A stretch of DNA of 64,000 nt from an uncultured bacterium (GCA_902761035.1 CACWIW010000006.1:14462-78461); one strand, 5' to 3'. Positions 46,212 to 64,000 are shown, counted from the stretch's first letter. Numbers and translations: made by a program. The notes: a model not told the origin generated them from the letters alone.

Positions 46212-46247
46212 CTCTCACCTTACCTCAACAATCATCTCACGTACACG

Positions 46248-46271
46248 GTACGTCACATATCGCAATATGTG
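46248..46271. promoter_or_regulatory. Operator-like imperfect palindrome GGTACGTCACATAT-N4-ATATGTG in the ppd-B promoter
   Basis: CACATAT/ATATGTG 7-bp inverted arms. It is reiterated at 46467, 52622, 54865, 61365 and 61610. Confidence 0.45.
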
Positions 46272-46466
46272 AAGCAACGCGGCAACGCTCCGCGCCCGTG
46301 GGGTATGCAGCCGAATACCTCATTCCTTCGCATTCTGATGTTTTAGCCACCATCGCGTTGCCGCATAGTGTAACCTATTTGTTGCGGGGTGTCAATGGGG
46401 AGACTTTGGATCTTCAGTTCCCAAACTCACCTTCACCACCACACACTTCACTCTGTCTGTCCACGC

Positions 46467-46491
46467 GGTACGTCACTTATCCGAATATGTG
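46467..46491. promoter_or_regulatory. Second copy of the operator-like palindrome (cacttatccgaatatgtg variant)
   Basis: ggtacgtcacttatccgaatatgtg. Confidence 0.4.
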
Positions 46492-46591
46492 ACGACGATA
46501 TTAGGAACCGCATCCGCATCTATCCTTTTCTGCAACTGTTCCCTGTGAGGGGAATCGACTACAGTGCATGAATGGGAAAAACCTTCGACGT

Positions 46592-47611: not shown

Positions 47612-47760
47612 GATGCTTCTCCTTCCATTAAAGCGTGGACTTGTATTCACATCCGCCGCCTTCAACCCATCAACAAACCTTCCAACTTCAACCATCTCTC
47701 ACCATCCAACCCGCCCACAAACCTTACAACCATCTCTTATCATCCCTTTTTGTCAAAACA
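47612..47760. repeat. ppd 5' fragment + promoter unit 1 (junction unit), with 23-bp perfect palindrome caaaacaggtcagacctgttttg
   Basis: acatccgccgccttcaacccatcaacaaaccttccaacttcaaccat (= MVEVGRFVDGLKAADV) followed by ctctcaccat...; the palindrome is at about 47750-47772. Confidence 0.7.
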
Positions 47761-47762
47761 GG

Positions 47763-47981
47763 TCAGACCTGTTTTGACATGGTGCCTCCTGCCTCGTCTC
47801 TGTCAAGTGTCCATGGCACGATGATGCGTCCACGCGCCGCATAGATGGGCCGCAACCGCTCTTGCAGCATGACCAGCTGCCGTACCTTCTCGGGATACGA
47901 CAAGGCCGCCTGACTCGCCCTGAAAGTCTCCTTGGCGTACTGCCTCTCGCTCAGAGGTCGCATTTTCACTGCAACTGCCAT
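47763..47981 (-). CDS. Small protein, possible antitoxin partner of the downstream NTase-like gene
   Basis: 72 aa. It overlaps the downstream ORF by 16 nt. There is no recognisable motif. Confidence 0.3.
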   Translation of the reverse strand: MAVAVKMRPLSERQYAKETFRASQAALSYPEKVRQLVMLQERLRPIYAARGRIIVPWTLDRDEAGGTMSKQV

Positions 47982-48472
47982 TTGTCAAACCTCTCTTTCA
48001 AGTTGAAGGTTGAGAGCAAACCCAGAAACTGCGACTCGGAAAACCCCCTGCTCAACTGAAGCATCTGCACGCGCAATTTGTCCTTGAGCCGCCCGGTTTT
48101 GACGCATATCGCCGCCAGATATTCGGCCAACATGACTTTTGTCTCAACACCTTCGTAGTCGAATGACCGCGCCTGAACAAGTGCTTCCTGCAGCAGAGCA
48201 TCATAGGCAGGAAGGAATTGAACCGGCGTTCCTTCAATGTTTATACATTCTTTTTCATACTCATCCGGCAGATATCCCCATTCTTTCAGCTTGCCGTAGA
48301 CAGGCGAAAGCGGCGCCAAGTCGGAATCATCAGGGAAAAGAACAAATATATCAAGATCCATCGTCGTGACGGTCTCAACATAAAACATGGCACCCATCGC
48401 ACCACCAATGGCATAGTCATCAATGACCTTTTCGCGCACCAGGCGATTCAAGACTTCAAGCGTCTTTTTCAT
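47966..48472 (-). CDS. Nucleotidyltransferase-fold protein (MNT/AbiEii-like), putative toxin
   Basis: YAIGGAMGAMFYVETVTTMDLDIFVLF fits the hG[GS]x(9-13)DhD Pol-beta-superfamily NTase signature. Confidence 0.4.
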   Translation of the reverse strand: MKKTLEVLNRLVREKVIDDYAIGGAMGAMFYVETVTTMDLDIFVLFPDDSDLAPLSPVYGKLKEWGYLPDEYEKECINIEGTPVQFLPAYDALLQEALVQARSFDYEGVETKVMLAEYLAAICVKTGRLKDKLRVQMLQLSRGFSESQFLGLLSTFNLKERFDKWQLQ

Positions 48473-48528
48473 ACCATAAGCCTTTCACACCATGCTCTGC
48501 GTGCGTGGGGACTAAAGTGATGCTCAAA

Positions 48529-48700
48529 GGGTCTGACCCCATTGGTGAAGTAGAAGTGGTGGAGTAGTTTTTTTCACAACACAGGTGTCGGTCACATACG
48601 CGCAGAAGCCCTTCAGCAGCGAATCCGGCACGCCAGCGAAGAACTCCACGCCAGAATCATTCAAACAATCAACAAATCTCTTAACTTCTACCATACCATC
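48529..48700. repeat. Junction unit 2: GGGTCTGACCCC palindrome + conserved linker + ppd 5' fragment (MVEVKRFVDCLNDSGVEFFAGVPDSLLKGFCAYVTDTCVVKK)
   Basis: gggtctgaccccattggtgaagtagaagtggtggagtagttttttt cacaacacaggtgtcggtcacatacgcgcagaagcccttcagcagcgaatccggcacgcc.... Confidence 0.75.
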
Positions 48701-48814
48701 AACCCTTCAGCGCCATTGTCGCAATCCAATCTGCCCCAAATGAACCAAATCATACCAACGACTGGTGGACATAACTTCGCAATTATAATATAAGAAATAG
48801 CATTTAAGCACACA

Positions 48815-51385
48815 TCAATCTGTAATTCTCGTCAAAACTGAGACTTGTTCAATCTCATTCAATATTTCTGTGTGAGGCTGTACTTTGGCTGCTATCTCTG
48901 CATAAATATCCGCATTTAATGCTTCAGAAACCTCGTATGTGACAAATAAAGCATATTTCACCGGCTCCACAATCGCTGCAGCATTCTGGCGGCAATTAAC
49001 CTTAACCGTTACATTTTCTGTATCAACAACTGCAATAGCACGTTCATTTACAAAAACTTCATGTTGCACTGTCCCTCGCTTTACCTTTCGATAATCCACT
49101 TCTGTTCGCACACCAATACTACTATCATCAAGGATATTAAACCACAGTTTTGCATTTCGATACTTTCTATTAGTTGTCGTTACAGGTGTCAACCACGCCA
49201 ATGTTACAGTAAACTTCTTATAGCCACGAAATGAATTGACAGAAGGTGGGAGCGGAAAAACGTATGTATGCGCTTTATTATTTTTTAATTGCCCATATCC
49301 AATAAGAGTTACTCGATGATCGCTACATTCAAGTACTCGACTAATGCAACTCAGCCCATAGCCAATGTACTTAGCTATTTTCTTTCGTCCTACTTCGTCC
49401 TTATCATTTAAGCCCAACTTGTCCCCTAGATTACTTCTAATGTCATCCCAACCGGAAGAATGAACAACCATCGCTTTAAGAAGGCATGCTATATATTTAT
49501 CAAACTCTTCCCTTCCAATTCTATTAAGCAGGACATCATACAGCGCTACATATCCTCGACAACAATTGTGTGTTATCAAAGCTGCAGAACAACTGGTTCC
49601 GCGAAAATAACATGTCCTATTCAATTCACCGGGGGCACCTGGACAAGCAACCTTTATCCCTGGAGCACCGCTCGTATTACAAATATTGTATTCGACAAAA
49701 TCAGGCCCACAAGAGCCACTGCCATATAATTGCCGACCGCCATCCATAACTACATCTGGTTTAACGGATCGATTATACCCATCCCCAACAGAAGTTATAG
49801 GACTTGGCATTACTTGTTCAAATGGATTATGTCTATATCCTAGCACAAACTCGGAACAACTATCATTATGAATTGAACCAACAGTAATCGCATTTACAGA
49901 CTCCGCAGGCGAAAGTAACCTTCTATTACGCAAATTTGAATTAATGAATCTGAAGAATAACACCTCTTGCGTTCTCCGATCTTTTGATTCAAATTCCCTT
50001 GCCCCAAGATTAAGCGTTATTTTATCAGCATGATTACCAGAGCTTACAATTATCAGCACATTATACTTATAACTAAGCCAGTCAATCAATCTTGCGAGCG
50101 GGCTCATATCACTAAAAAACTCGCGAGACTCATCCCCGAGTGAGAGATTAATCAGTTTTACTGTCGGTGCTGCTGGAGTTAACTGTCCCTCGCCCTCAAA
50201 AATTCGCCTAATAGCCCTGTGTAATAAATCTACAACAAATACATTTTCAGGTATTTGTTCCCGCCCGTTTTCATATTTGAATATTGGTCTGAGATATATC
50301 TTGCTATTAACTGGCGGCTCGTGTGTATTGAGATCACCATGCAACACAAGTGATGCCATCGCTGTTCCATGAATCTGGTTCTCGAATTGATAATCTTCCG
50401 CGAATTCATCTGGGTCATCTATAATTACCCTGTCCTTCAATAAAGTATGTTCAACTATAGGCAGACCGTCCAACACACCAACTATCGGTTCGGTACACAC
50501 GGCTTCAGTATCACCTGTTACCGTAGTATATGGCTCAACAAACTCCACTTCATCTCTTGTAATCACTTTATTTACGAATTGGCCACAGGGACGAACATAC
50601 ATTATCTCCTCTGCTTTTATAAACTCCGCGTCCCCAGATTCTATAATCTGGGAGACCACGCTCAATGGCATAGCTACCTTAAGAGCGTGATATTTAATTT
50701 CTTCAACACAACATGATGCTATCACCATTCCCTGAGATTCAACAACTAAGGACCTGATTCGTGATTCGGCCTCACTTCTTCTCATATTATCATTCCTATA
50801 CCACAATTCTATATCAAACCTTAGGAAGGTCTCCCCCATGTCGATTGCATGCCTCCAATCCTCCTCAATCCCCGTGTCATGCATTCTATCCTTAACACCC
50901 CAGCGTCGAACATCTTTCAACAAAATAAACAATTGCTTGAACTTTCCAAATCCATGTTCAAAGGTATAATCCGGATTCTCTTTATAATGTTTCCACAAAT
51001 TATATAACTGATCAAGTGCCGTCCTATTACTCATCATCAAATACAAACGCCCATCCGATTGCGTATCTAGTTCTTCATCGTCTTCGTTTATTCTATTTTC
51101 AACAAGCCATTCTAGCCCTTGAATTCTGGCCACACAATTATAAAATGCATCTATCTCACCTAACACCTCCAGAACCAATACCAATTCAGGTTCGACACCC
51201 ATTGCCGATTCTGCCAGATTAGCTCTTTCGGAAACAAAGTTCTCTCTAATGGCAGTTAATTTCGGAGAACAGCTATTCCAAACATCACTTACCGTCTGGC
51301 GGACTGGATGTCCATGACTCGACGGCAACGATTCGCGATCCGCCTCGCTTGGTCTTGGAAATATTAAGAGTGGCCTCTGTGGCAT
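48815..51385 (-). CDS. Subtilisin-like S8 serine peptidase (IetS-like)
   Basis: 856 aa with an S8 catalytic triad context: VGVLDGLP (Asp), HGTAMASLV (His), GTSCSAALITH (Ser). It is paired with the upstream AAA ATPase. Confidence 0.6.
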   Translation of the reverse strand: MPQRPLLIFPRPSEADRESLPSSHGHPVRQTVSDVWNSCSPKLTAIRENFVSERANLAESAMGVEPELVLVLEVLGEIDAFYNCVARIQGLEWLVENRINEDDEELDTQSDGRLYLMMSNRTALDQLYNLWKHYKENPDYTFEHGFGKFKQLFILLKDVRRWGVKDRMHDTGIEEDWRHAIDMGETFLRFDIELWYRNDNMRRSEAESRIRSLVVESQGMVIASCCVEEIKYHALKVAMPLSVVSQIIESGDAEFIKAEEIMYVRPCGQFVNKVITRDEVEFVEPYTTVTGDTEAVCTEPIVGVLDGLPIVEHTLLKDRVIIDDPDEFAEDYQFENQIHGTAMASLVLHGDLNTHEPPVNSKIYLRPIFKYENGREQIPENVFVVDLLHRAIRRIFEGEGQLTPAAPTVKLINLSLGDESREFFSDMSPLARLIDWLSYKYNVLIIVSSGNHADKITLNLGAREFESKDRRTQEVLFFRFINSNLRNRRLLSPAESVNAITVGSIHNDSCSEFVLGYRHNPFEQVMPSPITSVGDGYNRSVKPDVVMDGGRQLYGSGSCGPDFVEYNICNTSGAPGIKVACPGAPGELNRTCYFRGTSCSAALITHNCCRGYVALYDVLLNRIGREEFDKYIACLLKAMVVHSSGWDDIRSNLGDKLGLNDKDEVGRKKIAKYIGYGLSCISRVLECSDHRVTLIGYGQLKNNKAHTYVFPLPPSVNSFRGYKKFTVTLAWLTPVTTTNRKYRNAKLWFNILDDSSIGVRTEVDYRKVKRGTVQHEVFVNERAIAVVDTENVTVKVNCRQNAAAIVEPVKYALFVTYEVSEALNADIYAEIAAKVQPHTEILNEIEQVSVLTRITD

Positions 51386-51391
51386 AACATT

Positions 51392-52378
51392 TTACTCTTT
51401 GTTTGACAATTCCTTGATTACATTCCTAATTGCCTTTTGTATATCTCCATTTGGCAGACTCAAGACGTATTTACGCATAACCGACAAACATACTTCCTCG
51501 AGTTCCGCATACGATAAGTATGCTCTTTTAGCCAATATCTCCTGTAATCTTGTTCCAAACACAATAGCAGACTTCCTTTCAAAACGCCTTATAAATTCAC
51601 CTATACCCCAAGTATCCGGTCCCGGTATTTCTACATGGAGCTGAAATCTCCGCCAAACGGCCCTATCAAGAAGTTCTGGATGATTAGAAGCACCAATAAT
51701 TACAACATGACTCGGCAAATCGTCAATCTTTAACAATAGCGTACTAACAACGCGTTTAACTTCACCTACATCATGTATATCTCCCCGTTCTTTCGCAATT
51801 GCATCAAATTCATCTAGGAAAAGCACACATCTTCGTGTTTTTACAAAATCAAATAAAGCGCTAATACGTGATGCTGTTTCCCCCAAATATGATGCCACTA
51901 GAGTTTCATATTTAACTGTATAAAGCGGAATCATCAGCGCTTCGGCCAAGCCTTCTGCAATAGAAGTTTTACCATTACCCGGGGCCCCAGTTAATAAAAC
52001 TCTATTTCTCGGTGCAAGCGCGTAAGATGCAAGCAAATCAGACCTCAAGTACTCATCCTTTAAATTATCGAGTTTCGTCCTAACACTATCTAAAATAACC
52101 AATTCATCCAGTCTCCTCTTAGGAATCTTTTCGTATACATATTCAGCGCCATTTTGTTTTGGAGCTAAGACAAGATTCCGCGAATAAGAATCTTCGACTT
52201 TATCAATGCCAAATCTACTTCTTTGAAGAGCTTCTTCAATAGCAAGCGCTACTACATCATGCTTCTTCGCCCTCTCTTCTGAAGCGACTGTTTCAGCAAT
52301 TCGTCGAGTTGCGATCCGATCGCCTCGCAATCCAGACTGAATCAATTTAATTATCAAATCAGATCTTGCCATTTCCAC
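51392..52378 (-). CDS. AAA+ ATPase (IetA-like)
   Basis: Walker A GAPGNGKT, Walker B VLFLDEFD, sensor-1 region IGASNHPELLD. Confidence 0.65.
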   Translation of the reverse strand: MEMARSDLIIKLIQSGLRGDRIATRRIAETVASEERAKKHDVVALAIEEALQRSRFGIDKVEDSYSRNLVLAPKQNGAEYVYEKIPKRRLDELVILDSVRTKLDNLKDEYLRSDLLASYALAPRNRVLLTGAPGNGKTSIAEGLAEALMIPLYTVKYETLVASYLGETASRISALFDFVKTRRCVLFLDEFDAIAKERGDIHDVGEVKRVVSTLLLKIDDLPSHVVIIGASNHPELLDRAVWRRFQLHVEIPGPDTWGIGEFIRRFERKSAIVFGTRLQEILAKRAYLSYAELEEVCLSVMRKYVLSLPNGDIQKAIRNVIKELSNKE

Positions 52379-52440
52379 CTCACGAATCTTTAATTATTTG
52401 TCCTGAAATAAGGCCTCGAAGTGTCCCACATGGAACTAAA

Positions 52441-52660
52441 GGGTCAGACCCTTTTGATAAAGTTCATTGATACAGTTGGTGGGACAACCGCCCTTATCCG
52501 TACAATGGCATCCGATTGAAAACTTCACCTGCACGCCTGTAAAGAACTCCACGCCCGCCGCCTTCAACCCATCAACAAACTTTCCAACTTCAACCATCTC
52601 TCACCATCATTTCAAATGCGCGGTACGTCACATATCACAATATGTGCAGCGCTCCACGCC
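52441..52660. repeat. Junction unit 3 (GGGTCAGACCC + short ppd 5' fragment + operator palindrome)
   Basis: gggtcagacccttttgat ... aaagaactccacgcccgccgccttcaacccatcaacaaactttccaacttcaaccatctctcaccatcatttcaaatgcgcggtacgtcacatatcacaatatgtg. Confidence 0.65.
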
Positions 52661-52914
52661 CGCAGCCTTCAATCCACCACCAACAAACCTGTCTCATACC
52701 TTTTGCCAAAACAGGTCAGGCCTGTATTTACACGGCAACGCATAGGCGTTCCTTCTTGTGTTCACGGGCAATCCACCGTGCGAACGCCTCTGCTTCCCTA
52801 TACAAAAACGACAGGTCAGGCGGCGGCGCATCCATTATCATTCGATAAATTTTATTGTTTTGAAGCGCCTCGTATTGTTCTTTAGTAAATACTCGCATAA
52901 TGCCTCCTTGTCAA

Positions 52915-53090
52915 TTTTATGATGTCTCAAAGGGCCCCATTGGTGGAGTAGAAGTGGTGGAGTAGCTTTTTTCACAACACAGGTGTCGGTCACACACGTG
53001 CAGAAACCCTTCAGCAGCGAATCCGGCACGCCGGCGAAGAACTCCACGCCCACCGCCTTCAACCCATCAACAAACTTTCCAACTTCAACC
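52915..53090. repeat. Junction unit 4 (degenerate palindrome + linker + ppd 5' fragment with its start codon lost)
   Basis: agggccccattggtggagtagaagtggtggagtagcttttttcacaacacaggtgtcggtcacacacgtgcag ... ttcaaccccgtgcg; the track ORF 52838..53104 is this relic. Confidence 0.7.
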
Positions 53091-53105
53091 CCGTGCGAAA
53101 ACAAT

Positions 53106-54596
53106 TCAGCCCTCTTTTCGTAGTGTCACCTTCCAAAAACCACGCGTACCGCCTTCACGGACAAGTACACCCTTTGTCTTCAATGCGGCTATCTGTTTCT
53201 CGACAGTTCTTGGCCTAACATCTAAGGTTGATGCTATCTTACGGATTGCGGTCCTTGGATTCTCGATCAATATCTCACAAATGCGACGCTGTTCATTGGG
53301 AAGACCCACAAAGGAATTGTCCCCCCTATTGCCCCCCCCATTGTCCCCCCTATTGGTTGCGGGGGCCGGGCGCCAGATGACAATGCGAAAGCGACCAGAA
53401 ACCTCCTCCAAAAGAGGTTCCCTAAGCCCCTTTGCCTTGCATTCTTTCAGTAAATCGGTAAGTCCTGTCCCAATTGTCTCGATGTACTTCACCTGATACA
53501 TGGCGCGGGCGATTCGCGGATTCGTGGCAAACGACTCGTGCTTCTTGTACAATTCGGCAACGGTTATCGCGCGGTGGATCCGTCCTGGGCTGATGACCTC
53601 CACGCGATCCGAATAGACCTCAACCTGAATGCTGCCAATGCTCGCATAGTTTCGGTGGGCGATTGCGTTGTTGACGGCCTCGGCGATCACCGTGTTCGGA
53701 ATCTCGTCCACATCGTCCGCTGCCGCGCCGTGGCTATGTACTCCGGCACCATGATTCAGGTGTCGGCTGATGAATGCTATCGCCTGGTCAGCCATCAGAA
53801 ACAGATCTCCCTCGACAAGCTCCATGTCAATGTTGGGCTTGCGCTTTTCTGTTCCTGGATAACACGCGCACTTTATAGCAGAACTGGGAAACGGTCCCTG
53901 TACGTCACGCCCGAACAGTAGCACACCTGCCTTCGTCGGCGCGTTCCGCTTAGCGTCAAACAAGTGCAATGACCGCAGGACGTCAACAACCGACGGGTTT
54001 GGTGGATATTTGGCCTGACGTATACGGACGGCTCTCTCGACAAACCAAGCGATTCGGGCCGCATCAATGTCCTCCAGCGAAGCATCGGCCAGACACTGAT
54101 CTTCGAACGGCTTCTCCGATAAAATGCCGTCGTCAAGCATGATGTCGCGAAGGCTGTTCCGCACCTCGTCCAGCAGATCGTCGACAGCCTGTTCCGGTTC
54201 CGCATCCTGATATCTGACGCGCACACGTTCTTTTGAAACCTTGTCCAAGAAGCGCGCTTCACGATCTTCTCGCTTCGAGTTGTCCGAACCTCTCACCATT
54301 ACCAGTTTCGTGAGCCCCAGTTCCCTGGCTTTGTCAAATTCTTGTTCCGTTGGAGACAATTCCCCTTCACGGCAATATCCATATCGATTTCCAATCAGGA
54401 CAAGATAGATGTCACATTTCTCGATTTCTCCCAGATAGACTTGTTGCGTGGATTTGTCCGAAGCCGGTGCATCTATCTCAAAGACAAACACAGTGAAATA
54501 TGGCTTCAGTATCGGATCGGACTCAATCATCCGCTTGATTGCAGCCCGTTCGTGCTCGAATTCCTTCTGCACACTCGATATGAATAGCCGTTTCAT
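53106..54596 (-). CDS. DUF4062 domain fused to a Schlafen/AlbA_2-like domain, HATPase_c_4 and a C-terminal winged-HTH (RecG-C-like putative regulator)
   Basis: N-terminal MKRLFISSVQKEFEHERAAI is DUF4062-like. FDAKRNAPTKAGVLLFGRD matches the AlbA_2/Schlafen core. EAVNNAIAHRNYASIGSIQVEVYSDRVEVISPG matches HATPase_c_4. The C-terminal EQRRICEILIENPRTAIRKIASTLDVRPRTVEKQIAALKTKGVL is an HTH. Confidence 0.55.
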   Translation of the reverse strand: MKRLFISSVQKEFEHERAAIKRMIESDPILKPYFTVFVFEIDAPASDKSTQQVYLGEIEKCDIYLVLIGNRYGYCREGELSPTEQEFDKARELGLTKLVMVRGSDNSKREDREARFLDKVSKERVRVRYQDAEPEQAVDDLLDEVRNSLRDIMLDDGILSEKPFEDQCLADASLEDIDAARIAWFVERAVRIRQAKYPPNPSVVDVLRSLHLFDAKRNAPTKAGVLLFGRDVQGPFPSSAIKCACYPGTEKRKPNIDMELVEGDLFLMADQAIAFISRHLNHGAGVHSHGAAADDVDEIPNTVIAEAVNNAIAHRNYASIGSIQVEVYSDRVEVISPGRIHRAITVAELYKKHESFATNPRIARAMYQVKYIETIGTGLTDLLKECKAKGLREPLLEEVSGRFRIVIWRPAPATNRGDNGGGNRGDNSFVGLPNEQRRICEILIENPRTAIRKIASTLDVRPRTVEKQIAALKTKGVLVREGGTRGFWKVTLRKEG

Positions 54597-54662
54597 GGCG
54601 ACACTACATATCCGTTCACAAAATTACCCAGACTTGGATGTTCAGTTCCCAACGGGGCTAGA

Positions 54663-54950
54663 GGGTCTGGCCCCATTGGTGGAGTAGAAGTGGGGGAGTA
54701 GCTTTTTTCACAACACAGGTGTCGGTCACACACATGCAGAAACTCTTCAGCAGCGAATCCGGCACGCCGGCGAAGAACTCCACGCCCGCCGCCTTCAACC
54801 CATCAACAAACCTTCCAACTTCAACCATCTCTCACCTTACCTCAACAATCATTTCACATGCACTGTACGTCACATATCGCAATATGTGAAGCAACGCGGC
54901 AACGCTCCGCGCCCGTGGGGTATGCAGCCGAATACCTCATTCCATTTCCG
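54663..54950. repeat. Junction unit 5 (full-length copy of ppd-B promoter + 5' fragment + junction palindrome)
   Basis: 54700-54945 is near-identical to 46112-46330, including the operator and the cgctccgcgcccgtggggtatgcagccgaatacctcattcc motif. Confidence 0.8.
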
Positions 54951-55335
54951 CATGTGCATTTCTCCGCTCATGTTTGAGCCGTATAGTATACCATTTCCCC
55001 GCTGACTTATCCACCGTTTGACCATGCTGTTGATGATTTTCTTCTGTTGTTCCGCCACATGTGCCTAACGGCCTTTATCAACTCAAAACCACATCTCGAA
55101 ACAAGAATCGCTCTAAACCCTTACGACAATACTAGTTGTTCCAGAGTTGGCAATCATCCCATGATCCGCCGCGATTTCTCGTCCTTGTCCCACATATTCT
55201 TGAACAGATTCTTGTCCTTCAGCATATCCCAGCACTAATCCATCAATACCGGCTTATACCCAGCCGCTCAATCGTTTTATAATGCCCCCGCCGCATTTTA
55301 TACCATATTCCCGTATTTTCACCTCGTCTGAAAAT

Positions 55336-55971
55336 TCATGCCGCCTCTCGGTATGTTACAGTAGCGCAATCACGACTTGAAGAAGTCACCCTGTAGATTC
55401 GCCTTACCTCTGGCAAGACCTCTGTCTTAAAACTTGCAGAGAACGCCGTCTCCAAATTGATGTGTACGGGACCACCGCCATGCCATTTCAATGCCAACAA
55501 TGCCCGATTAACTTTAAGTTCGCAATCGCGCTCCTCTTCATAAGTCCTCGGTAGCGGACACTGTACAGAAAGATTCACGATGTCAGACGGCAAATGGATA
55601 CGGTCTGTCATCTGAGGCCACATGTTCCCGATATGGGAACTGTGCTGTGAACTTGTTATAGCCAGAACCGGCAACTTGCGATAATATGCCTCGGTAAGGG
55701 CTGGCATGTAATTCCTACTGGCCGTGGCTCCTGTACAATTGATAACAACTGGCTCTCCAGATTCCTCTGCGATGCCAACAGCGAGATATCCTGCGTGCCG
55801 TTCATCGACAGCAGAATACAACTTGAAGAACGGATCGCCCTGCACACTTAAGACGAAGCAATCATTCGTCGCCCCAGGGCTTAAGATCAAATGCTTAATC
55901 CCATACGCCTTCAGCAGCGCAATCACAATCTGCGCATTCTTCTCGTCAGTGTAGTAATGCTTTCCACTCAT
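55336..55971 (-). pseudogene. TPP-enzyme N-terminal domain only (truncated MenD/ALS/ppd-like gene, or ComD-like alpha subunit)
   Basis: 211 aa: KNAQIVIALLKAYGIKHLILSPGATNDCFVL ... GPVHINL is a TPP_enzyme_N domain, and no middle or C-terminal domains follow. Its first 23 codons are duplicated at 59472-59541. Confidence 0.45.
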
Positions 55972-56322
55972 TTTCTCGCTCCGCTTTTGTTATCCGCTAG
56001 TTTTCGTACCCAAATGTTTATCATGTTGTCCGCACTTACACGACAACAGTATTCAATTTCATCCTACGATTCGGGGACAAGTCTTTAGGCTAATAGGTTG
56101 CAGACCTATTTACTCTCCTTGGCATAACATAATATAGTCCGGGGACCCTACTTCCATGATACGATTTTCATAAATGGCCACATCCTTATCACAAGATTTA
56201 TCGTTGTAAACAAAAAGACGAATTGGTCTGCCAACAACTCTACTGACTTCATCAGAGACCCCACCGTACGATGTTTTATGGATACACTCGTCCTCAATAC
56301 GAAACTACCACTCCCATATTAA

Positions 56323-56793
56323 TTACTGTTTGCTTATATATTTACATAATTTTGTCAAATCAACAAGGGCATATTCATAGGCTTCTTTTATTGCACCAAG
56401 TAACTCTGCTTTCGATTCACATTCTACCGTTTTTCCCATATACTTCAAGTTTACAGGATAACCAGTAACAGGATTTAACTCATAACCAAAAATCCTTACA
56501 CCCCTATCAAGGACATAAACAACTACTTCATCCTTCATTTGTCTTGGTACCGTTGGGTTTTTCACCATCCCTGGCAATCCAATCATCATTGAATTCTCTT
56601 GGAAATGTGATATCGTAGAGGATAGTATTTGTAAACTTGAATTGAATTGTATTGTTATATCATATTTTTCCTTGAATGCTTCTACCATTGAATCTTTAAA
56701 ATCAGAAATTGTAGATATTATTTCTCTCCTATTTGCGAGACCTATTGGTATCTTATCTAATCCTACTTTAACAAAATTGAAATCCTCTTTCAC
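56323..56793 (-). CDS. Hypothetical protein, partner of the EEP nuclease
   Basis: 156 aa with no recognisable motif. There is a 1-nt gap to the upstream EEP gene. Confidence 0.4.
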   Translation of the reverse strand: MKEDFNFVKVGLDKIPIGLANRREIISTISDFKDSMVEAFKEKYDITIQFNSSLQILSSTISHFQENSMMIGLPGMVKNPTVPRQMKDEVVVYVLDRGVRIFGYELNPVTGYPVNLKYMGKTVECESKAELLGAIKEAYEYALVDLTKLCKYISKQ

Positions 56794-56794
56794 A

Positions 56795-57589
56795 TTATGC
56801 TCCTTTCTGCCATGAAATGGTTATTCCAACAGGGCTGTGTTCACTTTTTTCTGGATTATATGTCGTTGTTCCATAAATTCTTTCAGTACAATCAAACCTA
56901 TCCAATGAAAGAAAGGAAGACGATATTAGTAAAAAATCAAACAGTGCTCTTGTACTCTTTATGTCATCCACATTTTTGCAATTCAAACTTCCCACTTCAT
57001 CATGCATCTGACGCCAAAATGGATTGAAGAATCCTCCATGTTTTTTGACAAAATCACTTGATCGACTGACATTTAATGACCGCAATGCAGGCGACCATGG
57101 CTCAACGTTAAAATCCCCCATTACTATAGCAACTGCATCCTTTAATCGCCGCTGATCATCTCCAAATGCCAATCTATTCAACTTTCCTGCTGCGGCACGT
57201 TTTCTATCATCGCTATATGGAGCATCTTTTTGATTCCAATGGACAAGAAAGACATCCAACGAGGCATATAGCGCACTAACATTAAGCCGAACTCGTTGAC
57301 AAACGCGATATTGCCCACTAACTTCTGCCGAATCTGTCTTAACAATATTCCTATCCTCTTCACCAAAACTACAATCTACCTTTATTCGAGCTGAATTATA
57401 AATAAGCATTGTCTTAAAATTTATGCGACCAGATTGATGTATAAGTGGCATGATCTTCATTTTCTTTGGGCACAATGAGCCTATTCTCTTAACTAAGTCC
57501 AAATCACCTATTTCGCCCAACCCAATGATATCATTCTCTTTAGACAACAGATTGATTGTCCGCAATACCGATGCTGTGTTACAACACAC
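56795..57589 (-). CDS. Endonuclease/exonuclease/phosphatase (EEP) family protein
   Basis: VAIVMGDFNVEPWSPAL (EEP catalytic DFN motif) and an H-containing C-terminal motif. Confidence 0.55.
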   Translation of the reverse strand: MCCNTASVLRTINLLSKENDIIGLGEIGDLDLVKRIGSLCPKKMKIMPLIHQSGRINFKTMLIYNSARIKVDCSFGEEDRNIVKTDSAEVSGQYRVCQRVRLNVSALYASLDVFLVHWNQKDAPYSDDRKRAAAGKLNRLAFGDDQRRLKDAVAIVMGDFNVEPWSPALRSLNVSRSSDFVKKHGGFFNPFWRQMHDEVGSLNCKNVDDIKSTRALFDFLLISSSFLSLDRFDCTERIYGTTTYNPEKSEHSPVGITISWQKGA

Positions 57590-57722
57590 ATCACCACCAT
57601 AGGGACTAAGGCTCGTATTCCACCAAGCGATAGAAAGCGATCCTCCCTTTCTAGGTTTACCTATACACGACTCGTTAATAACAGAAAACCCTTTAAGATT
57701 TTATGCCAAGGCCTCCATGAGG

Positions 57723-58142
57723 TTAGACCCCATTGACGCAAACACTGGCGTTAATTCGATCTAGGGGGATTGTTAGGACGTGCCTCACAGCCCATTCACC
57801 AATTGGATAGCCAATTGCCAGCAAGACAATTGGGAACACAGTCTCGATTGTCAGCGCAGTGTTGAACCACCGTCTACTTTCCTCAAGGGCGGCCTCCTTA
57901 TCATTGGCGGCCATAGCCTGTCCAATTGATATCGCGTAAAACCTAGTAGCCCCTCCAACAACGACGCTGTTGAAAAAGCCGATGAAACCTATCAGACATC
58001 CAACAGCTCCCAATAACCCATAGTCCACTTCGCCTAGCGCCATCAGTATCCACCGTCCGCAAAACAACCCGATTATAAGCGCATACAGGCTCCGCCCATA
58101 TGTGGCTATAATGTTCAGAAATATTCTACGATTCGGAGACAT
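57723..58142 (-). pseudogene. Wzx flippase N-terminal fragment (remnant)
   Basis: The 139 aa (ATYGRSLYALIIGLFCGRWILMALGEVDYGLLGAVGCLIGFIGFFNSVVVGGATRFYAISIGQ) match the first 3-4 TM helices of Polysacc_synt/Wzx. The reading frame ends at the junction palindrome at 57720. Confidence 0.55.
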
Positions 58143-58208
58143 GGCTGTTATTTCTCAAAGATCAATGGCGTTTGACCAATCGTTGTAATTAACCCAATCA
58201 CTTCATTA

Positions 58209-59336
58209 TTATCCATTAGAATCGGCTTTAGGCGGTTGATTTCGCACAGTTGACACCGCATTCGCTAATTTTGCTACACAGTCAGCTACTTCGGACAATG
58301 GGGTTTGTGTTTTAACCTTATCAAGTGTCGAATTCGGATTCGAGCAAAGCACCCTAATCGTTTTTGACATCAAATCCTCGCTCAATTCTTTAGCACTTGA
58401 CACACCCTTATTCGCAAGCTCTTCTACCTGTTTTGCCATTCCAGTATATGTCTGCGCAACAACTACCTTATGGGCATATTCTTCCATTAATCGCCTATCT
58501 TGATTCATCAACTTATTTAGATGACACGTTAACCAAAATAGTGGCAGCACAAGCGGAGCTTTGCTCAACATGGCTTTTACAATCTTACCCCATAGGTCAT
58601 CACCAACTATTGATCCAACAGAAGAAACTGCGCACGAACCAATTATGCAAAACCCAATCAAACAGGCATAAAAGGAAATTCGTTCAAATATATACCTATT
58701 ACCTATCGACTTACGTTTCTCCTCAAATTGTGAACTCAATGTAGCAACTGTAGCCGTTGCCAACATGTCCTTCAACTTGCCCTGAAGCTCCTCGCAAGTG
58801 CTCTTGTTTTCTTCGATGAATTTCTTCAATGAATTAACAGCATTAGTCTGGCACTTTAAGGAGAATGTTTCAATTGATCTTTCTGCATCTTCTATTTTCT
58901 TGTCTACTTTGTCATGCAGATCATCAGAGGCTTTACGCAACTCATCCAAATCGGCATCTTCTCGCTGCCGTTCTTGCATCCAAGATTCTTTAGTTGATTG
59001 TAGTTTCGTCTCAAACTCACTAATGCTGCGCTCACAACGACCAAGCCTTTCAGCTAGTTCTTTGCTTTTGGTAAGGTCACTTACCAGATTACTCAAAGCA
59101 TCTGATGAATGCGCCGCCAAGTTATTATTTCCAGATGGGGTAAGAGATCTGGATGCGTTCCCTACTGCAGCTGAGGCAGCTCGCATTGCTACTAAGAACT
59201 GCTTCTGCAACTCTGGCGATACACCATTAAATGTCTTCAGCAGCGATTCCTCCGGCTCAATACCCAAGGCATCTCTGAGCCGCTGTTTTGCATCTGCATT
59301 TATCGCATTCTGGACTACTGGATTTGAACTCTTCAA
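58209..59336 (-). CDS. Coiled-coil membrane protein (2 TM), unknown function
   Basis: 375 aa with an N-terminal coiled coil of about 190 aa, two hydrophobic helices (ISFYACLIGFCIIGSCAVSSVGSIV; APLVLPLFWLTCHL) and a C-terminal soluble region. Confidence 0.45.
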   Translation of the reverse strand: MKSSNPVVQNAINADAKQRLRDALGIEPEESLLKTFNGVSPELQKQFLVAMRAASAAVGNASRSLTPSGNNNLAAHSSDALSNLVSDLTKSKELAERLGRCERSISEFETKLQSTKESWMQERQREDADLDELRKASDDLHDKVDKKIEDAERSIETFSLKCQTNAVNSLKKFIEENKSTCEELQGKLKDMLATATVATLSSQFEEKRKSIGNRYIFERISFYACLIGFCIIGSCAVSSVGSIVGDDLWGKIVKAMLSKAPLVLPLFWLTCHLNKLMNQDRRLMEEYAHKVVVAQTYTGMAKQVEELANKGVSSAKELSEDLMSKTIRVLCSNPNSTLDKVKTQTPLSEVADCVAKLANAVSTVRNQPPKADSNG

Positions 59337-59471
59337 TTTGTTTGATCCTCACTGTCGCGTTCCATAAACTTCACCCGTCTCTTTATGTTCTTTAAGTATT
59401 ATTCGCATACATGTCCTCCCGTTTTATTTGCCGCAAATTATACCATTTATCTTCTCTCTACAAGCCGCACC

Positions 59472-59541
59472 ATGCGTCTTCAGCAACGCAATCACAATCT
59501 GCGCATTCGTCTCGTCTGTGTAGCAATGTTTTCCACTCATA
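59472..59541 (-). repeat. Duplicated 5' fragment (23 codons) of the TPP-N gene at 55336..55971
   Basis: atgagtggaaaacattgctacacagacgagacgaatgcgcagattgtgattgcgttgctgaag is about 90% identical to 55902-55971. Confidence 0.75.
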
Positions 59542-59673
59542 CAACCACTCTCCTCATGTCAAGGCTTCGCGCCATAACACAATGTTTCCAACCCTTTCCT
59601 TTAAGTAACGCAACTGATAAATCTATGTCATGTACAATCATGCACAATCCTACGACACCGTCATATCAGAACG

Positions 59674-60162
59674 TCAACTTGACGATTCGGAAGATTCTGA
59701 ATTCCGTATCTCCGCATATTCATGTGCCTTTTCCAATAAATCTATACTCTCAAGAGAATGCGCAGATGAAGATAATATCGGATATGTTGAAAGCACAAAA
59801 GTTGCAAGCCCAGAATGCTGTCTTTCTTTATAGATGGAAACCACTTTATTTATAACATTCCTGATCTGTTCGGGAATGTCTTCTGGAGGGCGAATCAAAC
59901 ACCGCACCTCTTGATTTACATCATCCACCTCAAATTCTTGTTTTGAAGATCTAAGATATGATTCCAACCCTTCGTCCGCCAAACCATGTCGAAATACTTT
60001 CCATTGAACATCGACCACACGACAATTGTATTTAATGCAGGAATGCCAATCACATAGATAAACCAATAACAACAAGGTTATTTGGTCGACCCGATTACTT
60101 CCTGTCGCCGCACTTATAAGTACGGAAACAAATTGACCAAGTTGTATTTTTTCGCTGTCCAT
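59674..60162 (-). CDS. Hypothetical protein (first of a two-gene cassette)
   Basis: 162 aa with no recognisable motif. It is separated from the upstream gene by 1 nt. Confidence 0.4.
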   Translation of the reverse strand: MDSEKIQLGQFVSVLISAATGSNRVDQITLLLLVYLCDWHSCIKYNCRVVDVQWKVFRHGLADEGLESYLRSSKQEFEVDDVNQEVRCLIRPPEDIPEQIRNVINKVVSIYKERQHSGLATFVLSTYPILSSSAHSLESIDLLEKAHEYAEIRNSESSESSS

Positions 60163-60163
60163 G

Positions 60164-61024
60164 TTAAAACTCCTCCAATTCTTTTACCTTGTCCGGCGAC
60201 GGGATATAGTCTTTAAATGCATGGATAACAGCTCCGAGTTTCTGGCAACTAGGCTTTACGATCTTTTCTATTTCCGCATCATCTCTGCCACCAATCCCTT
60301 TTATCAATGAAGCGATAACAATAATGGCAAGATGTTCCCCCTTACAATCAATCCGAGTTCCCCAATATGTCCGTCCATGAAATTTAATACTCTGTATATC
60401 ATCCGCTGATAAATTATAAACTTTTTTACAATATGATTCATACTCTCGCTTCCCCTTCTTTCCATTGGAGATTTTAGGGAATTTATCATCATATAACTTT
60501 CCTTCATCCCAAATCTTCTTGAACATTTTTGCTAATGGTCTCATTCGACAACTTTTCTTTTCATATTCGAGATTAGTTGAACATCTTTCACAACAGAAAT
60601 ATTGTTGCGCATCCCCATTGCCCTGTACAAGGTAGAGAGATATTCTGTCACTGTTGCCCAAATCTAGTTCACTACGAAGGCTCTCCAATATGCCATGAAG
60701 CGCGGATGGAACAACTTTCTCCATCGTGGATATTTTACCTTGGAATTCTTCTACTTTATCCCTTAATCCATCGTTCTCATCTGATAACTTTGTCACACTT
60801 TTCTTCGTGATATGAGAAATTAGAACACGAACTACTACTAGTATAATAATCATTCCAAAGGCGCTCCATGCAACGGCTCGCCCATAAGACATATTAACAC
60901 TATCTGGGAGAAGCGCACCACGAACCTCTGAAGACAGAAACAACGGAGAAACCACGACCAAACCTTCATATACAATACGAAGAGGTATTGCATATTTCTC
61001 TATCCACATTATAAAAGTTTTCAT
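60164..61024 (-). CDS. Membrane-anchored (2 TM) protein with a Cys-rich globular domain, unknown function
   Basis: The start is taken at MKTFIMWIEKY because the longer track ORF runs into the junction palindrome. It has two N-terminal TM helices, a coiled coil and a CCERC...C region. Confidence 0.45.
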   Translation of the reverse strand: MKTFIMWIEKYAIPLRIVYEGLVVVSPLFLSSEVRGALLPDSVNMSYGRAVAWSAFGMIIILVVVRVLISHITKKSVTKLSDENDGLRDKVEEFQGKISTMEKVVPSALHGILESLRSELDLGNSDRISLYLVQGNGDAQQYFCCERCSTNLEYEKKSCRMRPLAKMFKKIWDEGKLYDDKFPKISNGKKGKREYESYCKKVYNLSADDIQSIKFHGRTYWGTRIDCKGEHLAIIVIASLIKGIGGRDDAEIEKIVKPSCQKLGAVIHAFKDYIPSPDKVKELEEF

Positions 61025-61047
61025 ACTAAACCTTTGGCGGACGGATA

Positions 61048-61068
61048 CTATGGGGTCAGACCCCATAG
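61048..61068. repeat. Perfect 21-bp palindrome CTATGGGGTC-A-GACCCCATAG (junction site)
   Basis: Seen directly in the sequence. The same GGGGTCAGACCCC core occurs at 48529, 52441, 54663, 57720 and 61422. Confidence 0.85.
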
Positions 61069-61286
61069 TAAGAATCAGCGAAGTATGTTCAACCATCTTA
61101 ACGCGAATACCTTCTTGCCGCCCACTTCACAACTTCCAGCGGCACTGTCTTCCGTTCGCGCGGAAACGCAGACTTCTCGCTTTTCGACACCTTGGTGACG
61201 AAGTTTGCCGATCCAATTATACCACCCGACGTGAAGAGCGCATCTTCCCGATCTTCCTGTTCCGCCATGTCTGCGTCCATCCTGAT

Positions 61287-61400
61287 CCGCAACTGCCCGC
61301 CGCCTTCAACCCATCAATGAATCTTACAACACCAACCATTTCTCGACATCATTTCATCTGCGCGGCACGTCACTTATGCGAATATGTGCAAGGTTGGGAT
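61287..61400. repeat. Junction unit 6 (short ppd 5' fragment + operator)
   Basis: ccgccgccttcaacccatcaatgaatcttacaacaccaaccat ... cgcggcacgtcacttatgcgaatatgtg. Confidence 0.65.
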
Positions 61401-61421
61401 GGAGACGTGGAGGGGCTCAAA

Positions 61422-61650
61422 GGGTCTGACCCCATTGGTGGAGTAGAAGTGGTGGAGTAGCTTTTTCACAACACAGGTGTCGGTCACACACGTGCAGAAA
61501 CTCTTCAGCAACGAATCCGGCACACCGGCGAAGAACTCCACGCCCGCAGCCTTCAACCCATCAATGAATCTTCCAACTTCAACAATCTCTCACCATCATT
61601 TCACATGCGCGGTACGTCACTTATTTGAATATGTGCAGCCGCTCATGTTT
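61422..61650. repeat. Junction unit 7 (palindrome + linker + ppd 5' fragment + operator)
   Basis: gggtctgaccccattggtggagtagaagtggtggagtagctttttcacaacacaggtgtcggtcacacacgtgcagaaactcttcagcaacgaatccggcacacc ... ggtacgtcacttatttgaatatgtg; the track ORF 61374..61556 is this relic. Confidence 0.75.
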
Positions 61651-61669
61651 CATCTTCCCATGGCGTGAT

Positions 61670-62110
61670 TTATGCCAACAAAGGATGCTTTTGGTCTTTC
61701 GGCGACAGAATCAATGGGACGCCAATATCCGGCCATTTGACTTCAAGAACCGGATCGTCGAATCGCATTCCACGGTCGGACGCGGGGCAATAGAGATTGT
61801 CACACTTGTAACTGAACAGCGTATTGTCCTCCAGGACGATGAAGCCATGCGCGAACCCGCGAGGAATGTAGAACTGCTTTCTGTTCTCGCCTGTCAGCGT
61901 GACTACTACGTGCTTTCCAAAGGTTGACGAGCCTTTCCGGATGTCGACAACCACATCCCAGACCGCGCCCTGAATCACCCTCACCAGTTTAGCCTGGGTG
62001 TGCGGCGCGGCTTGCCAATGGAGTCCTCTCACAACGTCCTTCGACGTAGGGCCGGGATTGAAAACGTCTTTGTGCAGGACAACAAAAGTTTCTCGTCTTA
62101 CGTCCCCACT
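61670..62110 (-). pseudogene. rmlC: dTDP-4-dehydrorhamnose 3,5-epimerase (rmlC), 5'-truncated
   Basis: VVRGLHWQ...AKLVRVIQGAVWDVVVDIRKGSSTFGKHV...FYIPRGFAHGF is the RmlC cupin. The frame is open upstream to a TAG stop at about 62127-62129, with no Met codon. It encodes SGDVRRETFVV, corresponding to RmlC residues about 20-30. The first 20 or so codons are absent, and the region overlaps the 3' end of the RloB-like gene. Confidence 0.6.
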
Positions 62111-62778
62111 TCCGCTACGGATAGTTGCCTACTGATGAAATCAAACAATGGGGCGACCTTTGGCGAATTCCAATCCCAAAGATTCGGATCTAACAAACCC
62201 TTCATAATTCCTCCGCGATCCCACACAGAAGGGCCGAGTACTGCCGCCTCATAATCGTTCATCTTTGATTTCTGCGATGGCTTCTGTCCTCCATGAATCT
62301 CAAGACAGGCTTCGTACCGTCGCCAGCACTCAGCAATGAGGGAAACGTATTTTTGCGGCACAATGTCTTCAAGCAGATTCTCAAGTTCTCCGTCCCGGTT
62401 GTTATCTGGGAAGAGGAAAATATCAATGGCGTTTTTGGGCGGCGCCAGAAGCCGCCAAGTCGAAATCGCTTCCTTCAAGAACTTCGTTCGGTCGGCAACA
62501 CCACCTTTTTCCACACCTGTTTCATCTGCGTCAAATATCAGCGCAACATACAACCCGTCGCCATTTTTGTCCTCAGCAGAAGACTTTGCGCGGTCAAGTT
62601 TTGTGTACCCACCGACAGGAATTACCTCCACGCTCATCACTTCCGACCGAAGCAACACCCCGTCTACTGAACTTTCCGGAACACCAAATTCCGTGAACCC
62701 GGGGAATCTCGCGGCAAATAATGCACGAATAAAGCATGCGTCTTTCTTCCCTTCAACGAGAAATCTGACGGTTTTCAT
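62098..62778 (-). CDS. RloB-like / DUF4435 (TOPRIM-like) protein, AbiLii-like
   Basis: 226 aa. There is a 4-nt overlap with the upstream AAA_21 ATPase gene. The acidic DADETG ... DNNRDGE motifs are consistent with a TOPRIM-like fold. Confidence 0.45.
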   Translation of the reverse strand: MKTVRFLVEGKKDACFIRALFAARFPGFTEFGVPESSVDGVLLRSEVMSVEVIPVGGYTKLDRAKSSAEDKNGDGLYVALIFDADETGVEKGGVADRTKFLKEAISTWRLLAPPKNAIDIFLFPDNNRDGELENLLEDIVPQKYVSLIAECWRRYEACLEIHGGQKPSQKSKMNDYEAAVLGPSVWDRGGIMKGLLDPNLWDWNSPKVAPLFDFISRQLSVAEVGT

Positions 62779-63866
62779 CGTACCTCCAGATTCATCGAAA
62801 GCGAATGGGTAAGTTCCTGATGGTTATACGGGAAAGCAACCACTTTATCGCCACAGCGCCTCACCATGTTCAAATACACAAATTCTCCGTCATCCACACA
62901 ATCGGTTTCCTCACCTATTGCCTTCAACATTTCAATATTATGCGTCGTAACAATCAGTTGGATATTTCTATCTCTGGCCAGGCATACAATTGACTTCCAC
63001 AACTCCTTCATCGCGGAATAATGCAACCCATTCTCAATCTCATCTACACAGAGTATGCCACCTCCGGGGCACAGCGCAAGAATTGACAGTATTTCTGCCG
63101 CCTTGACCACCCCATCGCCCATCACATTTATCGGCAGGCGCATCTTGCCATCACCGACTCCAACTAACAGCATGTCCCCATCGTAGGCAATATCCAAAAT
63201 ACGCGAGTCCACGAACTGCAAATATGGTAGAACTTTTTTTTCATCTCCCGATTTGAAAAGTCGTGAATAAACTGGAGAGATGTTGTTCCTTCGTTGCGAC
63301 TGGTAGAAAACACACTCCCAATCATCATCCGTAGTCCGTCCATCTATTTTCCCGTACTCGGAACCTGTCTTCTGGGGATCAAAGGGATAGCATCGATATT
63401 CGTCCTTGATGAAAGCTATCATCATTGCTCCGCAGCTGACCGCATTTTCGCCACGATTCGTATAGAATTGTTGAACATAAGTAAAGGGTTGCCGTTCGTT
63501 GATGTTATCTTTAGGCGAATCTTCCAGCTTAAACTCAATCGCCGACCTGTGCGTACATTCAAAAGAAACCCCTCGGGTTGTTTTATCGGAGAATATACCA
63601 TGCATGGTAATCTCTCCTTCGTCGCCAGCACCGTAAAAGAGCGTCGCGAGGCTTCTTGTTTTCATCCTCTCACCACGGTTCCATACCAATTTTCCAGGAA
63701 TCGCACCGTTGGCACGATTGGATAAAAAGCAAATCGCTTCCAGCAAGGTAGACTTACCGCTGTTGTTCTTGCCGCCAATGATTGTAATCGGCCGAAAACT
63801 ATCACAGGAGAAATCTTTGAACCCGCGGAAATTTACAATGTTAAGCGACGAAAGAAACCTTTTCAT
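62775..63866 (-). CDS. AAA_21/ABC-type ATPase (AbiLi/RloA-like)
   Basis: Walker A IIGGKNNSGKSTLLEAI, Walker B ILCVDEIENGLH, and a C-terminal IVTTHN (H-loop). Confidence 0.6.
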   Translation of the reverse strand: MKRFLSSLNIVNFRGFKDFSCDSFRPITIIGGKNNSGKSTLLEAICFLSNRANGAIPGKLVWNRGERMKTRSLATLFYGAGDEGEITMHGIFSDKTTRGVSFECTHRSAIEFKLEDSPKDNINERQPFTYVQQFYTNRGENAVSCGAMMIAFIKDEYRCYPFDPQKTGSEYGKIDGRTTDDDWECVFYQSQRRNNISPVYSRLFKSGDEKKVLPYLQFVDSRILDIAYDGDMLLVGVGDGKMRLPINVMGDGVVKAAEILSILALCPGGGILCVDEIENGLHYSAMKELWKSIVCLARDRNIQLIVTTHNIEMLKAIGEETDCVDDGEFVYLNMVRRCGDKVVAFPYNHQELTHSLSMNLEVR

Positions 63867-64000
63867 TTGCGACTCCTTGCTGGCGCTAATACCATTGGCA
63901 CATCCTGCCTTAATAACATAGGACTTGTGTTGTGAGGATTATTTTCAGCAACGCACATCGGTACTATGTAGACTCTACCATCAGAACTGCGGACATGCGC

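Follow-up and report, generated by a model that had tools for sequence, protein, structure and literature searches.

Organization and conservation of the cassette

We analyzed a two-gene cassette in a 64,000-nucleotide (nt) stretch of DNA from an uncultured bacterium (GCA_902761035.1 CACWIW010000006.1:14462-78461). The whole stretch is hereafter called the window, and all coordinates refer to it. The cassette lies at positions 59674 to 61024 on the minus strand, which carries all genes in this part of the window, and it encodes a membrane protein of 286 amino acids (aa), transcribed first, followed by a 162-aa protein. We refer to the two genes as the toxin gene and the antitoxin gene, respectively, for their relation to the published toxFtsL:PanA toxin-antitoxin family. 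The toxFtsL-like toxin gene (PanT cluster T13/D9) spans positions 60164 to 61024 on the minus strand (861 nt, 286 codons plus the stop), with its ATG at 61024 and its TAA at 60164-60166; its assignment draws on the open reading frame (ORF), homologues, an AlphaFold2 model, hhalign, and the ratio of nonsynonymous to synonymous substitution rates (dN/dS). The antitoxin gene, at 59674 to 60162 on the same strand, is predicted to encode a diverged, stand-alone Panacea (SocA/DUF4065) protein (PanA), based on subthreshold PF13274 matches, BLASTP, hhalign, and dN/dS. A single base (60163) lies between the TAA of the toxin gene and the ATG of the antitoxin gene, so both ORFs and the 1-nt spacing reported in the first-pass annotation of this DNA were confirmed. 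The length of 287 aa given there for the larger protein included the stop codon and was corrected to 286 aa.

Since homologues of 283 to 286 aa begin at a methionine equivalent to that at 61024, we placed the toxin start at this position; a longer toxin ORF from the ATGs at 61066 or 61096 was unsupported. Within the last codons of the toxin gene, a Shine-Dalgarno-like GGAGGAG run (60170-60176, minus strand), read from the sequence, is located 7 nt ahead of the antitoxin ATG and is compatible with a possible translational coupling of the antitoxin gene to the toxin gene. Scanning the sequence upstream of the pair for sigma-70 promoters and intrinsic terminators gave no relevant match.

A search of 5.8 billion protein clusters yielded 9 close relatives of the toxin (45 to 100% identity) and 14 of the antitoxin (41 to 100% identity), encoded on the same contigs. 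In the close-family contigs inspected, both genes were always adjacent and in the same order, with a 1-nt gap or a 1-nt overlap, while their neighbors differed. As had been proposed, the pair forms a self-contained and conserved module of two genes, with a slot of its own among defense-type cassettes. In comparisons with unsaturated synonymous sites, dN/dS was 0.08 to 0.14 for the toxin gene and 0.10 to 0.11 for the antitoxin gene; in the remaining comparisons, synonymous sites were saturated and the proteins were still alignable. Both ORFs, for which a lack of conservation or of coding signal had been named as a refuting outcome, are therefore conserved, with dN/dS values around 0.1, and are real genes under purifying selection. 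The close subfamily was found only in metagenome-type contigs. A degenerate-pattern scan of 185,579 species-representative genomes returned no relative of the close family, a genome scan with a subgroup alignment of the wider family returned only 3 loci, and tblastn of the window toxin against plasmid and phage collections gave no match.

Relation of the smaller protein to Panacea antitoxins

No Pfam, NCBIfam, PADLOC, or PHROG model reached threshold for either protein of the pair. Nevertheless, the Pfam family PF13274 (SocA_Panacea) was matched below threshold in 9 of the 14 antitoxin-family members, with a best E value of 1.6e-4. The genes located 3' of distant toxin relatives encode proteins that score above the PF13274 threshold (48 to 53 bits), and residues 30 to 149 of the window antitoxin aligned with one of these partners by BLASTP with an E value of 8e-11. 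Comparison of the window antitoxin family with the PF13274 partner proteins by hhalign gave a match of 99% (E value, 4.7e-18) over 143 columns, and the motifs LVYL(C/S)DWH and STYPI(L/I)SS are common to both families. Although no domain could initially be named in the 162-aa protein, these alignments identify it as a diverged, stand-alone Panacea protein.

We then considered the genes that accompany the toxin in more distant relatives, whose loci are designated by L numbers. Most toxin relatives inspected were followed, 0 to 7 nt downstream, by a gene of 142 to 173 aa, which was usually Panacea. The partner matched PF13274 at L009/L010, L012, L013, L019/L020, and L022, and the match was weak at L023/L024 and at L011 (154 aa; E value, 0.0032). 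At L025, the partner of 142 aa ends at the contig edge and was given no class. L026 is a conjugative Vibrio harveyi plasmid (NZ_CP154269.1, 47617-54519), on which the partner is annotated "Panacea domain-containing protein." The toxin relative on this plasmid is a "hypothetical protein" in RefSeq, and a Hok/Gef toxin gene lies nearby. The exception was L014 (3425-4597), where a 280-aa toxin homologue lacks a downstream Panacea gene; this locus may represent a rearranged or decaying module. Just upstream of the L014 toxin homologue, an ORF of 99 aa on the opposite strand, without a Pfam match, ends in a sequence (STYPLKSS) that recalls the Panacea C terminus.

Relation of the pair to the toxFtsL:PanA family

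A profile built from the nine close toxin homologues and searched against 1.84 billion representative proteins matched 251 proteins at an E value of ≤1e-3. Almost all of them are 255 to 320 aa long and aligned from about residue 55 to the C terminus; P0094 from Vibrio cholerae was among the matches (E value, 2.9e-8). As judged from these alignments, the wider toxin family is broad and has a single architecture. Cluster mates of the profile matches carry WP_105030053.1 (Photobacterium aquimaris) and WP_105052395.1 (Psychrosphaera saromensis), two accessions that appear among the T13 toxins in the Dataset S1 of a published survey of Panacea antitoxins (Kurata et al. 2022, PMC8832971). When the window toxin family was compared by hhalign with T13 members, in an alignment containing P0207 (WP_105052395.1) and P0177 (the cluster representative of WP_105030053.1), the match was 96.9% (E value, 1.3e-10) and covered 260 of the 286 columns.

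According to the survey, Panacea antitoxins (PanA) are paired with at least 88 toxin-domain types, and the toxin gene comes first in 325 of 1,268 families (PMC8832971). Cluster T13 (pT13) in Dataset S1 contains 22 pairs, all toxin-first and none tested there, with one member annotated as GAF; gaps between the two genes are mostly −11 to +4 nt, with outliers up to +79 nt (PMC8832971). The cluster includes the Gelidibacter mesophilus pair WP_027127282.1/WP_027127283.1 (PMC8832971), which was later validated as toxFtsL(D9):PanA (Ernits et al. 2023, PMC10440598). The G. mesophilus toxin, of 281 aa, contains transmembrane helices, an FtsL-like helix, and a GAF domain, and it is directly neutralized by a stand-alone Panacea protein with no added signal (PMC10440598). 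Its expression causes slow toxicity, filamentation, FtsZ delocalization, and collapse or lysis of the culture after about 1 h, and the membrane is not depolarized (PMC10440598). No paper other than PMC10440598 contained the name toxFtsL in the literature searched.

Like the G. mesophilus pair and cluster T13, the window pair forms a toxin-first operon with a gap of a few bases. In both cases, the toxin (about 280 aa) combines membrane helices near its N terminus with a long helix and a GAF fold, and the antitoxin (about 155 to 160 aa) consists of a Panacea domain alone. The window pair differs in the Cys/His set of its subfamily, in an antitoxin that stays below the PF13274 threshold, and in the absence of Pfam-detectable FtsL/DivIC similarity from the close family. 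The PanT toxins of E. coli STEC O31, Bartonella, and Helicobacter (Kurata 2022, PMC8832971) are likewise membrane-associated and are bound and neutralized by Panacea; however, they are small depolarizing or permeabilizing peptides, mostly in antitoxin-first order, whereas the window toxin is a large protein with a folded GAF domain and is encoded first.

Predicted structure of the toxin

Searching the Protein Data Bank (PDB) with a sequence profile of the toxin returned matches to coiled coils and membrane helices only. An AlphaFold2 run with the nine close homologues was unusable (predicted local distance difference test [pLDDT], 52), and we instead used a run with 102 relatives, which gave a model with a pLDDT of 93.7 and a predicted template modeling score of 0.78. 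The model consists of helices at residues 2 to 30 and 32 to 38, a continuous helix at residues 41 to 119, and an alpha/beta domain at residues 126 to 280.

Two N-terminal transmembrane helices had been noted in the larger protein. Hydropathy supported one of them strongly (peak at about residues 51 to 70), whereas the other (about residues 12 to 30) was marginal. The first hydrophobic helix, at residues ~11 to 32 (60929-60994, minus strand; YAIPLRIVYEGLVVVSPLFLSS), reached a Kyte-Doolittle maximum of 1.68 over 19 residues and corresponds to helix 12-30 in the model. The second, at residues ~50 to 72 (60809-60877, minus strand), reached values of up to 2.54 and forms the first part of helix 41-119; it is followed by the basic stretch TKKSVTK. 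The continuous helix (60668-60904, minus strand; pLDDT of >90 in the AlphaFold2 model), which is what the model shows for the coiled coil noted initially, thus comprises this transmembrane segment and a stalk of about 45 residues, presumed to be a dimerization or "FtsL-like" region. The basic residues past the second segment and the N-terminal lysines suggest, by the positive-inside rule, an in-out-in hairpin with the stalk and the C-terminal domain in the cytoplasm.

The larger protein had also been described as lacking a nameable domain. Foldseek comparison of the AlphaFold2 model with the PDB revealed a GAF fold at residues ~122 to 280 (60185-60661, minus strand): nearly all of the top 50 matches were GAF domains or GAF-containing proteins, with a probability of 1.00 and a best E value of 1.7e-5 (PtsP, 3ci6). 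Other matches were PDE6, DosS, CyaB2 (1ykd), Lcd1 (5w10), and the free methionine-R-sulfoxide reductase 4mmn, and target-normalized TM-scores against GAF structures were 0.65 to 0.75 (0.74 to 0.75 for 4mmn). The toxin has its fold in common with the GAF domains of PtsP, PDE6, DosS, and 4mmn but differs from them in lacking a Pfam GAF sequence match and in the fusion of its GAF domain to a membrane anchor and its pairing with an antitoxin. No Pfam GAF model was found for the window toxin or among the 25 most frequent families of the 102 relatives (E values up to 0.1). Across the wider family, mean column identity was 16%, and R127, Y131, R147, S149, W172, and S239 were nearly invariant. Weak single-sequence Pfam matches to DivIC, FtsL, or FtsL_2 were obtained for 9 of the 102 wider-family members.

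Several of the GAF domains matched by the model, namely those of PDE6, CyaB2, and Lcd1, bind cAMP or cGMP, and the six near-invariant residues suggest a conserved pocket or interface. These features would fit a ligand-gated membrane effector, in which a small molecule (for example, a cyclic nucleotide or other infection signal) is sensed by the GAF domain and the protein then damages the membrane as in CBASS or Pycsar, with the 162-aa protein as an accessory or regulator. We regard this explanation as quite improbable. No nucleotide cyclase or signal synthase lies beside the pair in the window or in any related locus examined, the sole conserved partner is a Panacea protein, and the published homologue is neutralized without an added signal (PMC10440598). 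Ligand gating could moreover coexist with a toxin-antitoxin function rather than replace it.

Another explanation emerged from the comparison of the model with viral structures. Foldseek retrieved the T holin of Serratia phage PS2 (E value, 2.2e-4; TM-score, 0.65), a class III holin of Proteus phage Stubb, and the phiP4-3 holin, which raised the possibility that the larger protein is a holin-like lysis protein, related to the T4-type (class III) holins and killing by membrane lesions, with Panacea in the role of an antiholin. The T4 holin T and its antiholin RI indeed resemble the window pair in combining a membrane helix and a globular alpha/beta soluble domain with a small binding partner. 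In T4 holin T, the soluble domain lies in the periplasm. In contrast, the basic residues past the second hydrophobic helix of the window toxin and the lack of a signal peptide in its partner point to a GAF domain in the cytoplasm, so that the topology is probably opposite; the similarity is at the level of the fold only (9 to 10% identity), and no endolysin neighbor was present at the window or close-family loci inspected. The culture collapse after about 1 h caused by the published homologue would fit a holin, but that homologue does not depolarize the membrane and acts on divisome assembly (PMC10440598). Overall, we consider a holin-like lysis protein very unlikely. The viral models also matched several phage "GAF domain-containing" proteins of 200 to 260 aa. 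From these structural matches, class III holins may have a GAF-like soluble domain, and proteins resembling the toxin may occur in phages.

The first-pass annotation had proposed that a CCERC...C...C cluster in the larger protein might be a metal site. The cluster exists: all nine close homologues carry C144, C145, C199, C260, and H231. Among 94 more distant relatives, P or L prevails at position 144, Y at position 148, R at position 159, and A, K, or E at position 260; Cys is frequent at position 145 alone (37 of 94). Based on residue counts over 102 relatives, we rejected a metal site as a core feature of the toxin family, since the cysteine set is invariant only in the nine closest relatives. 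If present at all, a metal site would be a peculiarity of the subfamily and not the basis of function.

These cysteines, the lack of any library model at threshold for either protein, and the position of the cassette among defense-type genes could together be taken to indicate an undescribed defense module with a functional CCERC...C...C metal site. This is extremely unlikely in our view, as the family has already been published (PMC8832971, PMC10440598), the cysteines are mostly replaced in the distant relatives, and there is no defense assay for any family member.

Assignment and proposed mode of action

Several points weigh against the assignment of the window pair to the toxFtsL:PanA family and against a defense function. 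The window antitoxin scores 16.0 bits (E value, 0.024) against PF13274, for which the gathering threshold is 25.7 bits. The link to the tested toxin WP_027127282.1 is indirect, via two other members of the same published cluster, and the window toxin is only about 20 to 25% identical to the T13 members examined; with such low identity, its target may differ. Pfam detected DivIC/FtsL similarity in none of the nine close-family toxins, and the close subfamily carries its own invariant Cys/His set. Because of the marginal first hydrophobic helix, the GAF domain may lie either inside or outside the cell. Lastly, no phage defense test is reported for the toxFtsL pair (PMC10440598).

Homology, the fold, the conserved pairing and order of the genes, and purifying selection nevertheless make it likely, in our view, that the cassette represents a type II toxin-antitoxin module of the PanAT class in which the toxin comes first, and that it is a diverged member of the toxFtsL(D9)/T13:PanA family. 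It is thus not the "genuinely undescribed" module suggested initially, since this family was cataloged in PMC8832971 and validated in PMC10440598. By analogy with the published homologue, the window toxin would be toxic, would be directly neutralized by its partner, and would target cell division.

We propose the following mode of action. The toxin would be anchored in the inner membrane by its N-terminal hydrophobic hairpin, and the long helical stalk would carry the GAF-fold domain, probably in the cytoplasm and probably in a dimer. The Panacea partner would bind the toxin directly and hold it inactive. If the antitoxin were lost, titrated, or switched by a trigger, for which phage infection and cassette loss are candidates, the free toxin would become active. 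By analogy with the G. mesophilus homologue, it would then disturb divisome assembly, with FtsZ delocalization, filamentation, and delayed lysis, and the outcome would be an aborted infection or a stabilized island. Whether this diverged member has retained the cell division target is, in our estimation, evenly balanced: perhaps it has. An anti-phage or other defense role of the pair is plausible from its gene context.

The toxin-antitoxin assignment could be combined with features of the two membrane effectors considered above. Toxins of the toxFtsL type might be domesticated holin-like lysis timers, in which the GAF domain is a gated sensor or an enzyme-like module with a six-residue pocket and Panacea restrains the toxin as an antiholin does. 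We regard this idea as rather unlikely. If it were true, the trigger would be a small molecule or a phage protein, and the Cys/His-rich subfamily would add a redox- or metal-dependent switch.

The cassette is a strongly diverged new member of a known, experimentally validated, and barely studied toxin-antitoxin family. Its assignment removes one candidate "new defense system" and gives names to two proteins that were blank in every annotation library tested. The toxFtsL:PanA family is also much larger than the 22 T13 pairs of the 2022 data set, with matches to the profile in at least 251 clusters (50% identity).

Genomic context of the family and of the window

Family members occur repeatedly inside type I restriction-modification operons and in arrays of defense cassettes. 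At L009, the toxin relative lies between hsdS and hsdR, and at L013, hsdS overlaps the toxin gene; other toxin relatives lie beside AbiEii, KAP NTPase, RhuM, and Bro-N genes. At L005 and L006, the pair heads glycan loci that are led by a thiamine pyrophosphate (TPP)-enzyme gene and resemble that of the window. A defense or island-stabilizing role is plausible, since neighbors and relatives lie in restriction-modification operons and among defense-type cassettes, and this placement makes an anti-phage test of this little-studied cell division toxin worthwhile.

In one branch of the close family, a gene of 322 aa without a Pfam match is located 53 nt upstream of the pair (L001, 8979-9947; L002 to L004; L006, 1346-2314). 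It is missing from the window, L005, and L007 and may represent either a cassette of its own or a third component that is optional.

The slot of the pair is bounded downstream by a 71-nt relic (59470-59540, minus strand) of the 5' end of a TPP-enzyme gene; it covers about 24 codons and is 90% identical to 55901-55971. The latter segment is the start of an ORF (55336-55971; TPP_enzyme_N) that is itself a fragment of 211 aa. This relic had been placed at 59472-59541, and the comparison upheld it with slightly adjusted ends. Upstream, a 21-bp palindrome had been reported at 61048 as a boundary of the cassette. We found a perfect palindrome of 23 nt at 61047-61069 (ACTATGGGGTCAGACCCCATAGT), 23 nt upstream of the toxin ATG; it is unique in the window and was obtained in 0 of 100 shuffles. 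Its core (ATGGGGTCNGACCCCAT) recurs at cassette junctions in L005 (5011-5027), L007 (1667-1683), and L008 (71-87), where the flanks are unrelated, the toxin gene is not adjacent, and no T-run follows. Because the core recurs at other junctions with unrelated flanks and away from the toxin gene, the palindrome belongs to the array as a repeated junction element and is not specific to the toxin-antitoxin pair, contrary to the initial description. For the same reason, it is unlikely to be an operator of the toxin-antitoxin operon. It may be a recombination site, a protein-binding site, or an RNA hairpin.

The upstream neighbor of the pair, at 62098-63866, is an AbiLi-like AAA ATPase (PADLOC AbiLi; E value, 6e-51) with a DUF3226/PDC-M38B partner. 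Between these genes and the toxin-antitoxin pair lies a truncated fragment of RmlC, a dTDP-sugar epimerase (61670-62032; 120 aa). Further neighbors in the window are an endonuclease/exonuclease/phosphatase-family (EEP) gene, a DUF4062 protein, and an S8 peptidase with an AAA ATPase. The next cassette downstream (58209-59336, minus strand) encodes a 375-aa protein that has a long coiled coil and, at its C terminus, hydrophobic segments; this protein gave only weak matches of the coiled-coil type (DUF3584 and LmuB; E values of about 1e-4).

The region at 46000-63900 of the window is an array of minus-strand cassettes spaced by 5'-end relics of two TPP-enzyme genes. The start of the gene at 45009-46211 (MVEVERFVDRLKAAGVEFFAGVPDS...) recurs at 48535-48692, 52528-52650, 52933-53090, 54669-54943, 61270-61392, and 61427-61639. 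This arrangement suggests that cassettes were gained repeatedly, through recombination with the first gene of the glycan/phosphonate locus as its anchor.

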